Positions 8,777-57,869 of a stretch of DNA of 64,000 nucleotides are shown piece after piece. The notes under the pieces were generated by a model. The model saw nothing but the letters and a program-made list of their open reading frames with translations, did no database searches and had not been told where the DNA came from. Made by a program: the position numbers and the translations under genes. Numbering within the stretch: the stretch's first letter is position 1; the number at the start of each line of letters is the position of its first letter. The stretch is from a virus, in IMG/VR virus record IMGVR_UViG_3300018876_000008, positions 32,001 to 96,000 of that record; one strand, 5' to 3'.

Positions 8777-10210
8777 ATGTACTGTAGAGATAATAGTTAT
8801 AGTGATGGTATCGACAGATTTATAGTTATTACTGTCGCTACAGAAAATAACAAAGAATTAGACCGATTTAGAGAATCGTGTCATATTAATAATATACCCT
8901 ACAAGATTATTGGTTTAGGTCAAGAATGGACAGGAGGTGAGGCTAAAGATGGGGTATTGTTACAACCTGGAGGAGCACAAAAAATAAATCTTCTTAAGAA
9001 AGAATTAGAGGATTATCCTAATTTATCTAATCACATAATTTTATTTACAGATTCATATGATGTAATAATTAATTCAACACCAAGTGAAATAGTTAGTAAA
9101 TTTAGGACTATGAAATCACCCGTAGTATTTTCAGCTGAAAAAACTTGTTGGCCGAAAAAAGATTTACAAAATAAGTACCCACCATCAACTACGGAGTATA
9201 AATTTTTAAATTCAGGAGGATTTATTGGTTACGGAGACCACATAATTAAAATTGTAAATAAAATTGATGTAAGCAATGATTACGATGACCAACTATATTA
9301 CACTGAAAGATACTTTGAGTCTTTAGCTGAAGATAAGAATATCATTTTAGATAATAATCAAAATATATTTCAAACCCTTAATGAATCCTTAGATGATGTT
9401 TTGGTGAAGGACGGTAAAGTTTTTAACAGAATAACAAATACGTATCCTTTAATAATTCATGGAAATGGTGGTTCGTCAATAAAAAATGTCCTAAATGATT
9501 ATTACCGCAGGTTATTTGATAAAGATGTTACAACTATAAATTATTTTAAGAAGGAAGATGACTTGGAGGATTTTGAGGATAATGTTAATATAGGATTATT
9601 TCTTGATGAGGAAGTCCCTAACATTAATCAAACTTTCGACCACATTAGATTTTTAAAATACCCTAAAGATAAAATATCCCTCACAATATATTATTCTGAT
9701 AACACACACAAGTATGATATTGATTTGTTTGAGAAAAAATATTCACATATTTTTAAAGAGTTTTATGTAAAATTTAATGACGATGGTAAAATAAAGTCAC
9801 GAAAAGACTTTTTGATTAATTCTTATGGTCTGTCTGATTATACAGTTTTAATGGAATCAAATCACATTTTTAGAAATAATAAATCTTTAGGGTTGATTAT
9901 CAAAGAGTGTGAAGGTATAATAACTCCTATGATTCATAAAGAAGGTAGTGATTGGGTTAATTTTGATTGTGAAAAGACTAAAAAGGATTCTTACAGGACT
10001 TATGAAACTAAAGGAATATGGGAGGTAAATTATCTTTACGGTATACACGTCATAAAAAATGATTTAATTCCTTACTGTGTAAATTCTTTATATATTAATT
10101 ACGATAACTATACAGACCCTAATTGGGACATTATGTTGTGTGATAATTTAAAAAGTAGAGGGGAAACTCTACAAATTTCAAATACAAACTATTACGGAGG
10201 AATTATATAA
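8777..10210 (+). CDS. PLOD/LH3-like glycosyltransferase (GT + accessory domain, no hydroxylase domain)
   Basis: Colinear with the PLOD N-terminal GT domain: VITVAT, GLGQEWTGG, GGAQKINLLKKEL, FTDSYDV, FSAEKTCWP, FLNSGGFIG, DDQLYYT, IFQTLN, IIHGNG. The second half has LKYPKDKISL, as in the PLOD accessory domain. Confidence 0.85.
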   Translation: MYCRDNSYSDGIDRFIVITVATENNKELDRFRESCHINNIPYKIIGLGQEWTGGEAKDGVLLQPGGAQKINLLKKELEDYPNLSNHIILFTDSYDVIINSTPSEIVSKFRTMKSPVVFSAEKTCWPKKDLQNKYPPSTTEYKFLNSGGFIGYGDHIIKIVNKIDVSNDYDDQLYYTERYFESLAEDKNIILDNNQNIFQTLNESLDDVLVKDGKVFNRITNTYPLIIHGNGGSSIKNVLNDYYRRLFDKDVTTINYFKKEDDLEDFEDNVNIGLFLDEEVPNINQTFDHIRFLKYPKDKISLTIYYSDNTHKYDIDLFEKKYSHIFKEFYVKFNDDGKIKSRKDFLINSYGLSDYTVLMESNHIFRNNKSLGLIIKECEGIITPMIHKEGSDWVNFDCEKTKKDSYRTYETKGIWEVNYLYGIHVIKNDLIPYCVNSLYINYDNYTDPNWDIMLCDNLKSRGETLQISNTNYYGGII

Positions 10211-10252
10211 TTCTTCTTTTTTTATTAATTATTTTTTACTATTTTTGTGTTT

Positions 10253-11899
10253 ATGGATAAACGTGAAAATTTACATTACAAAAAAGTTATAGACTCTTAT
10301 AGTATTGATTACTTTAGAGGTTATAACCGTATTAATGATAGATTTGAAACATATTCTGTACCTAAGTATGGTCATTGGGCTCATATTGATAAAAAGAGTG
10401 TCGATGAAAAAGAGTTTAAGGATAATTACGCTAATCAACAAGTTGCAGTTGAAAGTACAAAATACATAATAGTAATTGAAGAGTTTAGTAATAAAATTTC
10501 ATTAAAATTATATTCAACATTCCGAGCTCGTTCAGTAGGTGCAAAGTTTTTTAGAGTTAGAAAGGAATTATTATTTGTTACATACAATTTAAAGTTTAAT
10601 AATTTTTATACTGGTATTGTAAACAAAAAAAATAAAAAATTAATTAATAAGAGAGTTCGCGTTAATGATTTTTATAATCATCCTTTTAGTCGTATTGGTT
10701 TAGAAATAAGAAAAGTACTAAGAGACAGTTCACTAAAAAATGGTGGTAATATAGATGTTATACCTAATATGACAAAGATAAATGATTTATCGGATAACAT
10801 CATGAATATATTTTTAAACGCTATAATGGAAAAATGTGAAGTTAAATGTGATATTAGGAGTAAAGACCACGAGGAAAGGTTTTTTCAACTATTTTTAGAA
10901 TGTAATAAATTTAAGTATCCTAATAATTACAAAGAATACTCAAAATTACGTATACCTAAAAAACTACTTAAAAAACAAATTAATTTAGTTTCATCATTTA
11001 TGTCTACTAATTCTTTATATGGAAAAAAAGTACGAAAGTTTTTAAATAGTGGTGATAATATAGATTTTAATAAGTTAGTTAATCTCTATCGGTTGTTAGG
11101 AGTAGATTATTTTAACCTCTTAAATGATAGTGTATTTTCAAAAAACGATTTACAATACTATGATTCTTTTAAAGTTAACGAATTAGATTTTAGTTTAAAT
11201 TTATCAAACACAATGAAAACGAGGATAGTGAACGTGATAAATCAAGGACTTAGACTTAATTTACTTACAGACCATTTAAGGATGGTTAGTGACTTGAGAG
11301 AAAAACATAATTATATATTTAAATGTCATTTTAAAAATATAGATGAATTTAGTAATGAACATTATGATTTATCAGAGTTATTACAGTCTTATAATACAGG
11401 GGTAATTAACAGAAATTATGGTGATGAGGTTAATTCATGTATCGAAAATACGATAAGTGATTTAGTTGGTATTGAGTATTATCCAAAAGTATTAACTAAT
11501 ACTAAAGAGTATAATGAAGAATCACAAATTCAAAAAAATTGTGTAAGAACTTACTCCGAAAAATCAAATAATATTATAATATCACTTAGATGTGGTAATA
11601 TTAATAGTAATAATCGTGCAACTATTGAATATCGTTTTACTAAAAACAATATAGAAAGAGTACAATCTTTAGGAGGTAAAAACCATCAATTAAGTAATAT
11701 GTGGAAAGTACCTTTAGATATTTTAGATGAGAGAGTTAAAACCTTATATAAAAATAAAATATTAAATCCTCCTCATTTGTTTAAAGAATACAAAAGTGGT
11801 TTAGTAATTGAAAGACGCGCAGTATTAGATGGTGATTATGTAGTATGGGATAACATCGATGATTTACAAGAAAATGAAATTATGGATTTACCATTTTAA
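10253..11899 (+). CDS. PcfJ-like domain protein (start re-called to ATG 10253)
   Basis: C-terminal EESQIQKNCVRTY...RATIEY...QSLGGKN pattern of PcfJ-like domains; ends in DLPF; TATTTTTG box at 10240-10247. Confidence 0.7.
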   Translation: MDKRENLHYKKVIDSYSIDYFRGYNRINDRFETYSVPKYGHWAHIDKKSVDEKEFKDNYANQQVAVESTKYIIVIEEFSNKISLKLYSTFRARSVGAKFFRVRKELLFVTYNLKFNNFYTGIVNKKNKKLINKRVRVNDFYNHPFSRIGLEIRKVLRDSSLKNGGNIDVIPNMTKINDLSDNIMNIFLNAIMEKCEVKCDIRSKDHEERFFQLFLECNKFKYPNNYKEYSKLRIPKKLLKKQINLVSSFMSTNSLYGKKVRKFLNSGDNIDFNKLVNLYRLLGVDYFNLLNDSVFSKNDLQYYDSFKVNELDFSLNLSNTMKTRIVNVINQGLRLNLLTDHLRMVSDLREKHNYIFKCHFKNIDEFSNEHYDLSELLQSYNTGVINRNYGDEVNSCIENTISDLVGIEYYPKVLTNTKEYNEESQIQKNCVRTYSEKSNNIIISLRCGNINSNNRATIEYRFTKNNIERVQSLGGKNHQLSNMWKVPLDILDERVKTLYKNKILNPPHLFKEYKSGLVIERRAVLDGDYVVWDNIDDLQENEIMDLPF

Positions 11900-11971
11900 C
11901 TTATTGACATAATAAAAATATTATACTATGTTTACTACAAAATAAATTCTATAATTAAATACTAAAAAAAA

Positions 11972-57114: not shown

Positions 57115-57115
57115 A

Positions 57116-57241
57116 TTACCAATTTCTTCTTTTGTTTAATCTATCTTTCAGTGTCACATAAAGATATACACCTATAAAACCGAATAGACTTACATTCATT
57201 ATTATCTTAAGACCAACCATTATAGTATCAATTATCTCCAT
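57116..57241 (-). CDS. Small single-TM protein, missing from the ORF track
   Basis: MEIIDTIMVGLKIIMNVSLFGFIGVYLYVTLKDRLNKRRNW (41 aa) fills the gap between coupled genes. Confidence 0.45.
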   Translation of the reverse strand: MEIIDTIMVGLKIIMNVSLFGFIGVYLYVTLKDRLNKRRNW

Positions 57242-57869
57242 CATCTTTTACTCTCTTACAATTTATACAAGTAAAAAACTTTTTAACTAACCAATCAAGA
57301 ATAAATCTTTCAAAAAATACATCTCTAAATAAACGCCAAGGGAGTATAGTTAAGATAGTCCACGGAGTTATTTTAAAACTTCTTAAAACGATAACAGTTT
57401 TCTCACCGGCAGTAACAGGCATACCACCATGATAGGCCAATATGTGATTAGAGTTATAATGTATGTAATGACCTGGCTTATAATCCTGAGGACGATGTTC
57501 TAAATTAGCAAGAGGGAAGTTAGTACCACCACCTTCAAAATTAGTATTCAAATATATAAGGGTCGTAGTATAACTCCCATCATAATGAGGTTCCATTTCG
57601 AGACGGTCACCCCTATACTTAATAACGAATTTATCTTCATTATATTTAACACCTAATTCTTTCTGTAACTTATTAATTCTATAATCCATAAGTTTCTTAC
57701 CCTCACAATCTAATATATCCTCATAAGGACATTCATAAACGGAAAGGGAGACATCACCAAAAGCATCAGTGATAGTAAACTTATCATGTTGTCTTTCTAA
57801 ATCCCTAAGGATAATCTGACATTCAACATTCGGAATAGCTTTACCTACTTTATAATTAAATTTAAACAT
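57228..57869 (-). CDS. 2OG-Fe(II) dioxygenase, PLOD lysyl-hydroxylase-like (start re-called to 57869, MFKFNY)
   Basis: FVIKYR...PHYDGS...LN..FEGGG.F...YHGGMPVTAGEK: HxD...H triad and layout like the PLOD C-terminal domain (FVVRY..PHHD.S...EGGG..F...YHEGLP...GTRY). A TATTTCTTAGTATG variant of the late motif precedes 57869. Confidence 0.75.
   Translation of the reverse strand: MFKFNYKVGKAIPNVECQIILRDLERQHDKFTITDAFGDVSLSVYECPYEDILDCEGKKLMDYRINKLQKELGVKYNEDKFVIKYRGDRLEMEPHYDGSYTTTLIYLNTNFEGGGTNFPLANLEHRPQDYKPGHYIHYNSNHILAYHGGMPVTAGEKTVIVLRSFKITPWTILTILPWRLFRDVFFERFILDWLVKKFFTCINCKRVKDDGDN

Follow-up and report, generated by a model that had tools for sequence, protein, structure and literature searches.

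To our knowledge, hydroxylysine-linked collagen glycosylation has been seen as a feature of animals, mimivirus being the sole exception. Human LH3/PLOD3 (PDB 6fxk) carries a glycosyltransferase (GT), an accessory (AC), and a lysyl hydroxylase (LH) domain in one polypeptide, and a complex of LH3 with COLGALT1 is available (PDB 8zgc). Mimivirus L230 (PDB 6ax6) is an 895-aa fusion of a GT25-like glucosyltransferase and a lysyl hydroxylase that, according to the summary of Luther et al. 2011 in PMC9614988, attaches glucose directly to hydroxylysine. Mimivirus R699 (PDB 9dyt; PMC9546862, PMC12279948), at 458 aa, is built of GT and AC domains without a hydroxylase and is encoded alongside viral collagens. 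Both LH3 and R699 are glucosyltransferases acting on galactosyl-hydroxylysine (PMC9546862, PMC12279948), and a first-sugar enzyme is therefore needed upstream of them; R699 also has kojibiose synthase activity and makes free kojibiose (PMC12279948). Bacterial and phage collagens are unmodified in most cases according to reviews (PMC8968730, PMC9614988), and we found no published report of PLOD-type collagen-lysine modification in a phage.

The virus analyzed here is a marine jumbo tailed phage; it encodes a terminase, a portal, a lysozyme, and an M23 peptidase that also carries a peptidoglycan-binding domain, as a tailed phage of bacteria does. Three predicted collagen-lysine modification enzymes (LH, GT25, and GT+AC) are present in its genome as scattered, unfused genes. 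The window, i.e., the whole stretch of 64,000 nucleotides that was analyzed, corresponds to C1:32001-96000 of G000. Positions below are window positions unless they carry the C1 prefix, and the features are as follows.

8777..10210, plus strand: R699/LH3-type GT+AC protein, 477 aa (Pfam GT_PLOD, LH3 and R699 alignments)
15905..19765, plus strand: collagen fiber 1, 1286 aa (Pfam Collagen and Peptidase_S74)
19758..24941, plus strand: collagen fiber 2, 1727 aa (Pfam Collagen and Peptidase_S74)
24941..28780, plus strand: collagen fiber 3, 1279 aa (Pfam Collagen and Peptidase_S74)
34622-35554: GT11, sugar-handling gene
43430-43909: cytidylyltransferase-like, sugar-handling gene
54456-54911: RmlC, sugar-handling gene
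56434-57114, minus strand: RmlD-like, sugar-handling gene
57228..57869, minus strand: prolyl 4-hydroxylase (P4H)-like 2OG-Fe(II) dioxygenase, 213 aa from an internal Met (motifs, Foldseek)
C1:11952-12563, plus strand: divergent LH paralog adjoining the LH gene, outside the window
C1:12707-13342, plus strand: LH-domain gene, outside the window, ~19 kb upstream of its start
C1:148568-149317, plus strand: GT25/COLGALT-like gene, outside the window

The phage locus is a fully unfused, R699-like variant of the predicted collagen-lysine modification set. The collagen array begins 5.7 kb downstream of the GT gene; the LH gene is 28 kb and the GT25 gene 107 kb from the GT gene, and neither of these two shares an operon with the collagens. 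Whereas LH3 holds its three domains in one polypeptide, the phage distributes them over two genes, GT+AC and LH. The four sugar-handling genes listed in the initial annotation (rmlC, rmlD, GT11, and cytidylyltransferase) were all located in the window, and nothing tying them to the collagens was found.

The product of 8777-10210 matched Pfam GT_PLOD (PF25342) with 252.8 bits (cut-off 27; E 3.6e-75) over profile positions 4-239 of 246. Its residues 13-476 aligned with LH3 chain residues 14-492, spanning the GT and accessory domains (E 1.2e-59), and R699 matched over its full length (E 8e-43), with the alignment reaching R699 residue 456. These alignments place an AC domain after the GT domain and show no hydroxylase domain, in agreement with the initial annotation, which had described the gene as colinear with the GT and accessory domains of PLOD/LH3 and as stopping short of the hydroxylase. 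Because the open reading frame ends after AC and LH is a separate gene, the predicted protein is R699-like, not a PLOD, and yet it is slightly closer to animal LH3 (205 bits) than to R699 (150 bits). R699 is likewise viral, although its host is an amoeba and that of the tailed phage is a bacterium.

Residues identical to LH3 in the phage protein (LH3 numbering) are W75, K89, D112xxD115, E141, C144, W145, N165, D190-D191-Q192, and H253-G-N255, most of which are invariant across 15 homologs. Among them are the Mn2+ ligands (D112-x-x-D115 and H253) and residues assigned to UDP-sugar or acceptor binding (W75, K89, E141, W145, N165, D190, D191, Q192, and N255; PMC12279948); every residue named as catalytic in that work is retained. 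The equivalents of R699 K62, E114, W118, N138, D162, D163, Q164, H216, and N218 are all kept as well. LH3 W148 is replaced by Lys in the phage protein.

An architecture and best hits that resemble those of eukaryotes and giant viruses, together with a broken GT reading frame in the relative G001, might suggest decaying or nonfunctional acquisitions from such sources that play no role in the phage. We regard this as extremely improbable, given that the catalytic residues are invariant among homologs down to 31% identity, that full-length orthologs persist in several records of jumbo phages, one of them a 297-kb genome that is 99% complete, and that phage genes in the LH tree are not nested within the animal and giant-virus clade. 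The G001 copy has 98.3% DNA identity with 8 indels and the collagen genes of G001 are fragmented too, so the break points to assembly errors.

GT25 family members include lipo-oligosaccharide (LOS) glycosyltransferases in addition to hydroxylysine glycosyltransferases of the COLGALT type. The 249-aa product of C1:148568-149317 consists of a single GT25 domain (Pfam PF01755, 52.1 bits; cut-off 24), and a PDB search with it returned human COLGALT1 chains as the sole significant matches (best E 2e-8), with the EDD motif aligned and kept. Because the family also holds LOS transferases, we base a COLGALT-type specificity on gene fusions in other phages (below), which suggest that this gene is a candidate first-sugar enzyme, a step that the initial annotation did not look for. 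Unlike LH3 and COLGALT1, the phage enzymes have no signal peptide or endoplasmic reticulum (ER) context.

By homology, the true counterpart of the PLOD hydroxylase domain is predicted to be the product of C1:12707-13342, which matched LH3 at 2.1e-31 and L230 at 1.1e-23 over residues 6-207 and contains the Pfam domains OGFOD2-like and 2OG-FeII_Oxy_3. HxD, the distal His, and the 2OG-binding Arg are kept in all four orthologs. The GT, AC, and LH domains of LH3 are thus each homologous and colinear with phage counterparts, with metal and cosubstrate ligands kept; the LH domain of L230 is likewise homologous to the phage LH gene (1e-23), although L230 is a fusion and the phage encodes GT25 and LH apart. 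Among fused proteins, those closest to the LH gene product are GT4-GT25-LH, GT25-LH, and GT4-LH. The adjoining paralog, C1:11952-12563, is an extra and probably inactive LH copy, a further difference from LH3.

The missing hydroxylase had previously been sought at 57228-57869, which was read as a stand-alone PLOD C-terminal domain. This gene does encode a 2OG-Fe(II) dioxygenase: HxD, the distal His, and a Lys that binds 2OG are invariant in 12 homologs. Homolog lengths of 206 to 213 aa support the internal Met start, and the product ends in a long hydrophobic helix at the C terminus. A two-part PLOD, with this dioxygenase as the lysyl hydroxylase complementing the GT+AC protein, would accord with its intact catalytic triad, its membership in the same P4H/LH structural superfamily, its match to the LH gene of the same phage (2.8e-16 over ~95 residues), and a weak match to L230 (9e-5 over 80 residues), but we consider it very unlikely when the same genome contains a far better LH homolog (2e-31 versus ~1e-4). 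The 2OG ligand is Lys, as in P4Hs, not Arg; a Pfam hit and an OGFOD2-like N-terminal subdomain are both absent; homologs were found solely in close relatives (at least 52% identity); and the other PDB match, B. anthracis P4H, is also weak (3.5e-5). In a Foldseek comparison run with an AF2 model of this protein (pLDDT 77), the top matches were B. anthracis P4H and PBCV-1 vCPH (TM ~0.56 to 0.65), with LH structures lower but nearly as high. The Lys ligand, the P4H-like fold, and an L230 match of 9e-5 led us to reject this gene as the missing PLOD hydroxylase; it is possibly a prolyl-4-hydroxylase-like enzyme and a candidate extra protein hydroxylase.

The three fiber genes are predicted to encode phage-fiber-type collagens with an S74 intramolecular chaperone. 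Fiber 1 has an N-terminal noncollagen domain of ~90 aa; its G-X-Y repeats form 37 interrupted runs, and a Peptidase_S74 chaperone domain is at the C terminus. Fiber 2, whose start overlaps the end of fiber 1, has a central noncollagen domain of ~390 aa and a Cys-rich domain that precedes the S74 chaperone; fiber 3, whose start codon overlaps the fiber 2 stop, also ends in an S74 chaperone. Triplet counts in all three bore out the initial observation that Lys is frequent at Y and Pro mostly at X. Fiber 1 (290 triplets) has Lys at Y 119 times and at X 3 times, and Pro at X 96 times and at Y once; the corresponding counts are 147, 4, 108, and 0 in fiber 2 (312 triplets) and 94, 1, 136, and 2 in fiber 3 (302 triplets). 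Pooled, 360 Lys residues are at Y and 8 at X, and Lys occupies 31 to 47% of Y positions. Lys is also frequent at Y in mimivirus collagens.

Co-occurrence of GT, hydroxylase, and collagen, a check named in the initial annotation, was found in other viruses. Among 44 IMG/VR viral records with a GT_PLOD homolog, which are mostly fragments and not phylogenetically independent, LH was present in 36, GT25 in 33, and collagen in 32. Of 26 related contigs of at least 40 kb without the GT, 7 had collagen (Fisher P = 4e-4 versus the 32 of 44, again for records that are not phylogenetically independent). The median fraction of Lys at Y was 0.37 in collagens beside these enzymes versus 0.135 in GT-less relatives. 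Since the GT-less relatives G051, G060, and G061 carry collagens, phage collagens do not depend on the modification. The enzyme domains also occur as fusions, in most cases with a collagen gene as the immediate neighbor: GT25-GT_PLOD-LH (586 to 676 aa), GT25-GT_PLOD-AC, and GT25-GT_PLOD-AC-LH. GT_PLOD and GT25 are also fused in 718-aa proteins with 50 to 59% identity to the phage GT. In the cultured phages S-CAM9 (gp218) and CRP-6 (gp58), GT25-GT_PLOD-LH proteins annotated as hypothetical are encoded directly downstream of or near a collagen-containing tail fiber gene with Lys at Y. They have the same GT25, GT_PLOD, and LH domains as the phage studied here, but as single polypeptides of 589 to 613 aa without AC, whereas the present genes are unfused and include AC.

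These associations also bear on whether the enzymes are active on other targets, such as host proteins, virion proteins apart from the fibers, or free sugars (as in R699-like kojibiose synthesis), with a coincidental link to collagen. In this genome, LH and GT25 are encoded away from the collagens, R699 has the synthase activity noted above (PMC12279948), and EF-Tu can be a substrate of bacterial P4Hs, as the title of PDB 5v7y states. Nevertheless, many distinct lineages of phages repeatedly show LH fused to one or two GTs immediately beside collagen genes, the neighboring collagens are enriched in Y-position Lys, and collagen Lys or Hyl is the target of all the characterized enzymes, LH3, L230, R699, and COLGALT1 (PMC9546862, PMC9614988), which makes unrelated targets improbable.

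We consider it likely that the three enzymes form hydroxylysine (Hyl) and glycosylate the phage's own collagen fibers. The initial annotation had reached the same proposal for the Lys-rich collagens, and homology, conserved catalytic residues, fusions, and co-occurrence argue strongly for it, but its choice of hydroxylase was wrong. Substrate, sugars, step order, and biological role are inferred from the genes. In the infected bacterial cytoplasm, with chains still unfolded, the LH protein (C1:12707-13342) would convert Lys in X-Lys-Gly to 5-hydroxylysine with Fe2+, 2-oxoglutarate, and O2; the GT25/COLGALT-like protein (C1:148568-149317) would put the first hexose on the hydroxyl; and the GT+AC protein would extend this by another hexose, presumably glucose, with UDP-glucose as the donor. 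The S74 chaperone domains would then nucleate trimerization and self-cleave. The logic, a virus modifying Lys of its own collagens, would be shared with L230, though for the phage it is deduced from gene content. Plausible roles are helix stabilization without hydroxyproline, protease shielding, or adhesion tuning. The earlier idea of positive charge being masked by the sugars is weak on chemical grounds, since the epsilon-amine stays in place when the 5-hydroxyl of Hyl is O-glycosylated.

A broader possibility, which we put forward tentatively and consider rather unlikely, is that the toolkit of LH, GT25, and GT+AC diversified in tailed phages, not in animals or giant viruses, and that the jumbo phage keeps an unfused pre-PLOD state, the state from which PLOD-like fusions arose, making animal-type hexosyl-hexosyl-hydroxylysine at up to ~360 fiber sites in the bacterial cytoplasm. 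If phage fibers do carry the modification, whatever its origin, collagen-type posttranslational chemistry would work there without an ER, and LH, GT25, and GT+AC enzymes that are small and soluble and can be expressed in bacteria would be available for modified recombinant collagens and PLOD inhibitor work. Numerous split and fused intermediates would make the origin of PLOD testable, and some of the "cryptic" hydroxylase genes that are tallied among auxiliary metabolic genes of marine viromes (PMC9301287) would be accounted for. In the LH tree, rooted on a long-branch outgroup, animal and giant-virus-like sequences form a subclade (support 98/97) within a clade (99/98) to which the jumbo-phage LH and further metagenomic forms belong as well. 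LH domains of the S-CAM9/CRP-6 type form a clade separate from jumbo-phage LH.

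Three plus-strand genes (window 15905-19765, 19758-24941, and 24941-28780) encode collagen fibres of 1,286, 1,727, and 1,279 amino acids (collagens 1, 2, and 3) and are tightly coupled, with overlapping stops and starts. Coordinates prefixed C1 or G000:C1 are those of the whole record; all others are those of the window. As the initial annotation had reported, Lys is frequent at the Y position of the G-X-Y triplets (119/290, 147/312, and 94/302 in collagens 1, 2, and 3) and Pro is almost confined to X; Lys occupies just 3, 4, and 1 X positions, respectively. All three proteins carry a C-terminal Peptidase_S74 intramolecular chaperone domain, through which phage fibres and spikes usually trimerise. 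Two further domains are found in collagen 2:

20450-21620, central non-collagen domain of ~390 aa, no Pfam match
24230-24620, Cys-rich domain of ~130 aa, just before the S74 chaperone

In collagens 1 and 3, the triple helix runs directly into the chaperone, so both would end in bare collagen after autocleavage; in this they resemble decoration fibrils more than classical receptor-binding fibres.

The 477-aa product of 8777-10210 (plus strand) matches Pfam GT_PLOD at 3.6e-75, and its residues 13 to 476 align with the glycosyltransferase (GT) and accessory (AC) domains of human LH3 (PLOD3; E = 1.2e-59), bearing out the colinearity, without a hydroxylase, that had been claimed for it. It also aligns with mimivirus R699 (E = 8e-43), which has the same two-domain, hydroxylase-less architecture. 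Since no lysyl hydroxylase (LH) domain is fused to it, this GT-AC protein is R699-like and not a PLOD. In LH3 numbering, taken from the LH3 alignment (chain index plus 23), the Mn2+ ligands D112/D115/H253 are kept, as are W75, K89, E141, C144, W145, N165, the acidic stretch D190-D191-Q192, and N255; most of the listed functional residues are invariant across 15 homologs with identities down to 31%. In the R699 structure study, these residues bind UDP-glucose and the acceptor sugar (PMC12279948).

In a close relative, the GT gene (L034, G001:C1:41022-42455) contains 19 stops. A pseudogene or gene loss was rejected because this gene differs from an intact copy by only 8 indels, at 98.3% DNA identity, and fragmentation also affects the collagen genes in the same record; the broken gene looks like an indel-rich assembly error and not gene decay. 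When 185,579 prokaryotic species genomes were scanned with narrow patterns, GT-AC relatives were found on two short metagenome-assembled genome (MAG) contigs only, a hint that the GT is virus-borne. These contigs (L205 and L206; 7.5 and 18 kb; 31% identity), labelled Rhodospirillaceae and Acidimicrobiaceae, may be viral DNA binned with bacteria. Marine metatranscriptome contigs with parts of the GT and collagen genes (libraries X19 and X20; ~91 to 99% identity) were set aside as evidence of transcription, since such contigs cannot show it and stem from relatives.

The initial annotation took the 213-aa product of 57228-57869 (minus strand) to be the missing PLOD hydroxylase domain. This protein does have an intact dioxygenase triad (HxD...H), and its internal Met start is backed by homologs of 206 to 213 aa, but the PLOD identity did not hold. 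Its 2-oxoglutarate (2OG) ligand is a Lys, as in prolyl 4-hydroxylases (P4H), a Pfam search gave no match, and it matches Bacillus anthracis P4H (3.5e-5) and mimivirus L230 (9e-5) weakly; its AlphaFold model (pLDDT 77) is closest to B. anthracis P4H and a chlorovirus collagen prolyl hydroxylase, with lysyl hydroxylases ranking below. It may act as a hydroxylase on the ~340 prolines at X positions or on some unrelated protein. Its C-terminal ~40 residues (57228-57350) are conserved, strongly hydrophobic, and aromatic and are predicted, at low confidence, to form a single helix, which could be a membrane anchor or oligomerisation helix and would be unusual for P4H-type enzymes.

A search of the whole record with the same protein returned a paralog at C1:13031-13318, inside a 211-aa plus-strand ORF (C1:12707-13342). 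The ORF product matches LH3 residues ~523 to 736 at 2.1e-31 and the LH domain of L230 at 1.1e-23, shares with animal PLODs an OGFOD2-like subdomain recognised by Pfam, and keeps its Fe ligands and Arg in all orthologs. To judge from its sequence, it is the genuine PLOD hydroxylase domain. A related gene adjoins it:

G000:C1:11952-12563, plus strand, divergent LH paralog (LH3, 1.2e-9), directly upstream of the LH gene, ~20 kb upstream of window base 1

The paralog keeps HxD and is probably a non-catalytic partner, because all five orthologs have Tyr in place of the distal iron-binding His; the more distant ones also lack the 2OG Arg. It may be a conserved pseudo-enzyme partner of a dimer-forming hydroxylase.

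Because the characterised PLOD-type GT domains (LH3 and R699) glucosylate galactosyl-hydroxylysine (PMC9546862, PMC12279948), a separate first transferase would be needed. A GT25 gene (C1:148568-149317, plus strand, 249 aa) exceeds the Pfam cut-off, and the sole significant solved relatives of its product are chains of the human procollagen galactosyltransferase COLGALT1 (best E = 2e-8); the alignment includes the E-D-D motif. As far as homology can indicate, the three enzyme activities known from the animal pathway are all represented, as separate genes, and the locus is a fully unfused variant with an R699-type GT-AC protein, a pseudo-LH paralog, and an additional P4H-like gene. The sugar genes that had also been brought into the proposal (rmlC, rmlD, GT11, and a cytidylyltransferase) are present, but nothing was found linking them to the collagens.

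Scanning viral contigs with the GT as a single sequence gave no match; an alignment-based scan was needed, which in IMG/VR yielded 50 loci, with 44 records searchable. The co-occurrence that had been suggested as a check was looked for in these 44 GT-bearing records: an LH-domain match is present in 36, GT25 in 33, and collagen (E no greater than 1e-9) in 32. The records that lack matches are for the most part short fragments, or else the three with the weakest GT matches. The 26 control contigs, of at least 40 kb and from phages related via ThyA, all lack the GT, and collagen occurs in 7 of them (32/44 versus 7/26; Fisher P = 4e-4 from raw counts, with records treated as independent of kinship), and a complete 276-kb relative has neither. 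The median Lys-at-Y fraction was 0.37 in enzyme-adjoining collagens versus 0.135 in GT-less relatives (Mann-Whitney P = 1.5e-5, kinship ignored). The enzymes occur in the following architectures:

GT-AC alone: jumbo clade, collagen 6-9 kb downstream
GT25-GT-AC: separate LH gene adjoining
(GT25)-GT-LH: single proteins of 586-676 aa, directly adjoining a collagen gene
GT25-GT-AC-LH: 846-1140 aa, giant-virus-like

Metagenomic GT homologs include direct GT25 fusions (718 aa) that are 50 to 59% identical to the phage GT. Among fused proteins, those most closely related to the phage LH are GT4-GT25-LH, GT25-LH, and GT4-LH; thus, the hydroxylase recurs in fusions with glycosyltransferases, in which the second transferase is interchangeable. 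Two cultured phages carry fused forms, both annotated as hypothetical: gp218 of Synechococcus phage S-CAM9 lies ~1.5 kb downstream of a tail fibre gene with 59 G-X-Y triplets (22 with Lys at Y), and gp58 of Roseobacter phage CRP-6, whose host belongs to the Rhodobacteraceae, follows the fibre gene gp60, with 99 triplets (26 with Lys at Y). On related jumbo-phage contigs (L035, L038, and L039, 629 to 696 aa; L036/L037/L065, 923 aa), a SAM-methyltransferase insert of ~150 to 210 aa (Pfam Methyltransf_23/12/25) splits GT_PLOD, and GT25 also precedes it in the 923-aa forms. Next to the 923-aa form, few collagen Y positions hold Lys (fractions of 0.01 and 0.11), and Thr and Gln take its place.

By analogy with characterised homologs, the LH protein would hydroxylate Y-position Lys of nascent, unfolded collagen chains, the GT25 protein would then put on the first hexose and the GT-AC protein the second, and the C-terminal S74 domain would then nucleate trimerisation. 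This order would parallel animal procollagen, where folding is driven by the C-propeptide and modification must precede helix formation (PMC8968730). The phage system would work like mimivirus L230 and R699 and like animal LH3 and COLGALT1, and it is from such analogies that we infer the catalytic steps, the sugar identities, and the purpose. We consider collagen-lysine modification the likely function. A T4-like role of the GT in DNA glycosylation was rejected, as the LH and GT25 partners and the adjacency to collagen have no place in that scheme. The proposal of collagen modification is supported in part, and the observations behind it are borne out in part, with the choice of hydroxylase gene not upheld. 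Possible roles are stabilising a helix that lacks Pro or Hyp at Y, shielding the fibres from proteases, and tuning adhesion. Masking of positive charge, which had also been put forward, is unlikely because O-glycosylation at the 5-hydroxyl leaves the charge of Lys in place.

With the P4H-like family as root, a tree of LH domains has the fused forms of small phages in one clade and, in a second (99/98), the LH of the jumbo phages together with its paralog and further metagenomic forms; within this second clade, giant-virus-like and animal PLODs form a supported subclade (98/97). Because the root is a long branch, the tree does not fix the direction of transfer. A full-text literature search found no description of lysyl hydroxylation or hydroxylysine glycosylation in a bacteriophage. 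The nearest published precedents found are a 2010 paper predicting that collagen-like proteins of bacteria are modified by other dioxygenase families (PMC2938197) and remarks calling viral P4H genes cryptic (PMC9301287).

The window covers bases 32001 to 96000 of the IMG/VR record, which is 169,337 bp long, with a CheckV completeness estimate of 56%, and a 98% identical copy of the GT protein was found on a 412,709-bp contig. The record encodes the following:

terminase large subunit and portal protein
phage lysozyme, M23 peptidase with a peptidoglycan-binding domain, and a further peptidoglycan-binding protein
DNA methyltransferases, DnaJ, and ThyA

Given these genes, the virus is not a giant virus but a tailed jumbo phage that infects a bacterium. 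A Bacteroidota-type promoter motif (TTTG-N18-20-TAnnTTTG) occurs 5 times versus 1.9 expected; 6 of 100 shuffles reach that count, and the signal is too weak for a host to be named from it. No GenBank phage was matched when 24 kb of the window were searched by megablast; near-identical DNA is present in salt marsh and seawater metagenomes from many studies. GC content is ~30% in the genome versus ~40% in the collagen genes (16000-28000), which also have a strong purine skew, both due to their Gly, Pro, and Lys codon content; because of this base composition, collagen repeats are also falsely joined to one another at many points in metagenome contigs.

Most large ORFs, among them the ORFs on either side of the collagens, received no function from PHROGs. 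Other genes near the array are as follows:

12781-13917, plus strand, glutamine synthetase-like protein (Gln-synt_N and Gln-synt_C), 378 aa, between the GT gene and the collagen array
30130-33443 (plus strand) and G000:C1:152503-154407, three large paralogs of 537-634 aa, with a common domain matching phrog_17056 (function unknown)

Two of the three phrog_17056 paralogs lie shortly downstream of the collagen array, with a 351-aa minus-strand ORF intervening; those near the array could be fibre-attachment or baseplate parts.
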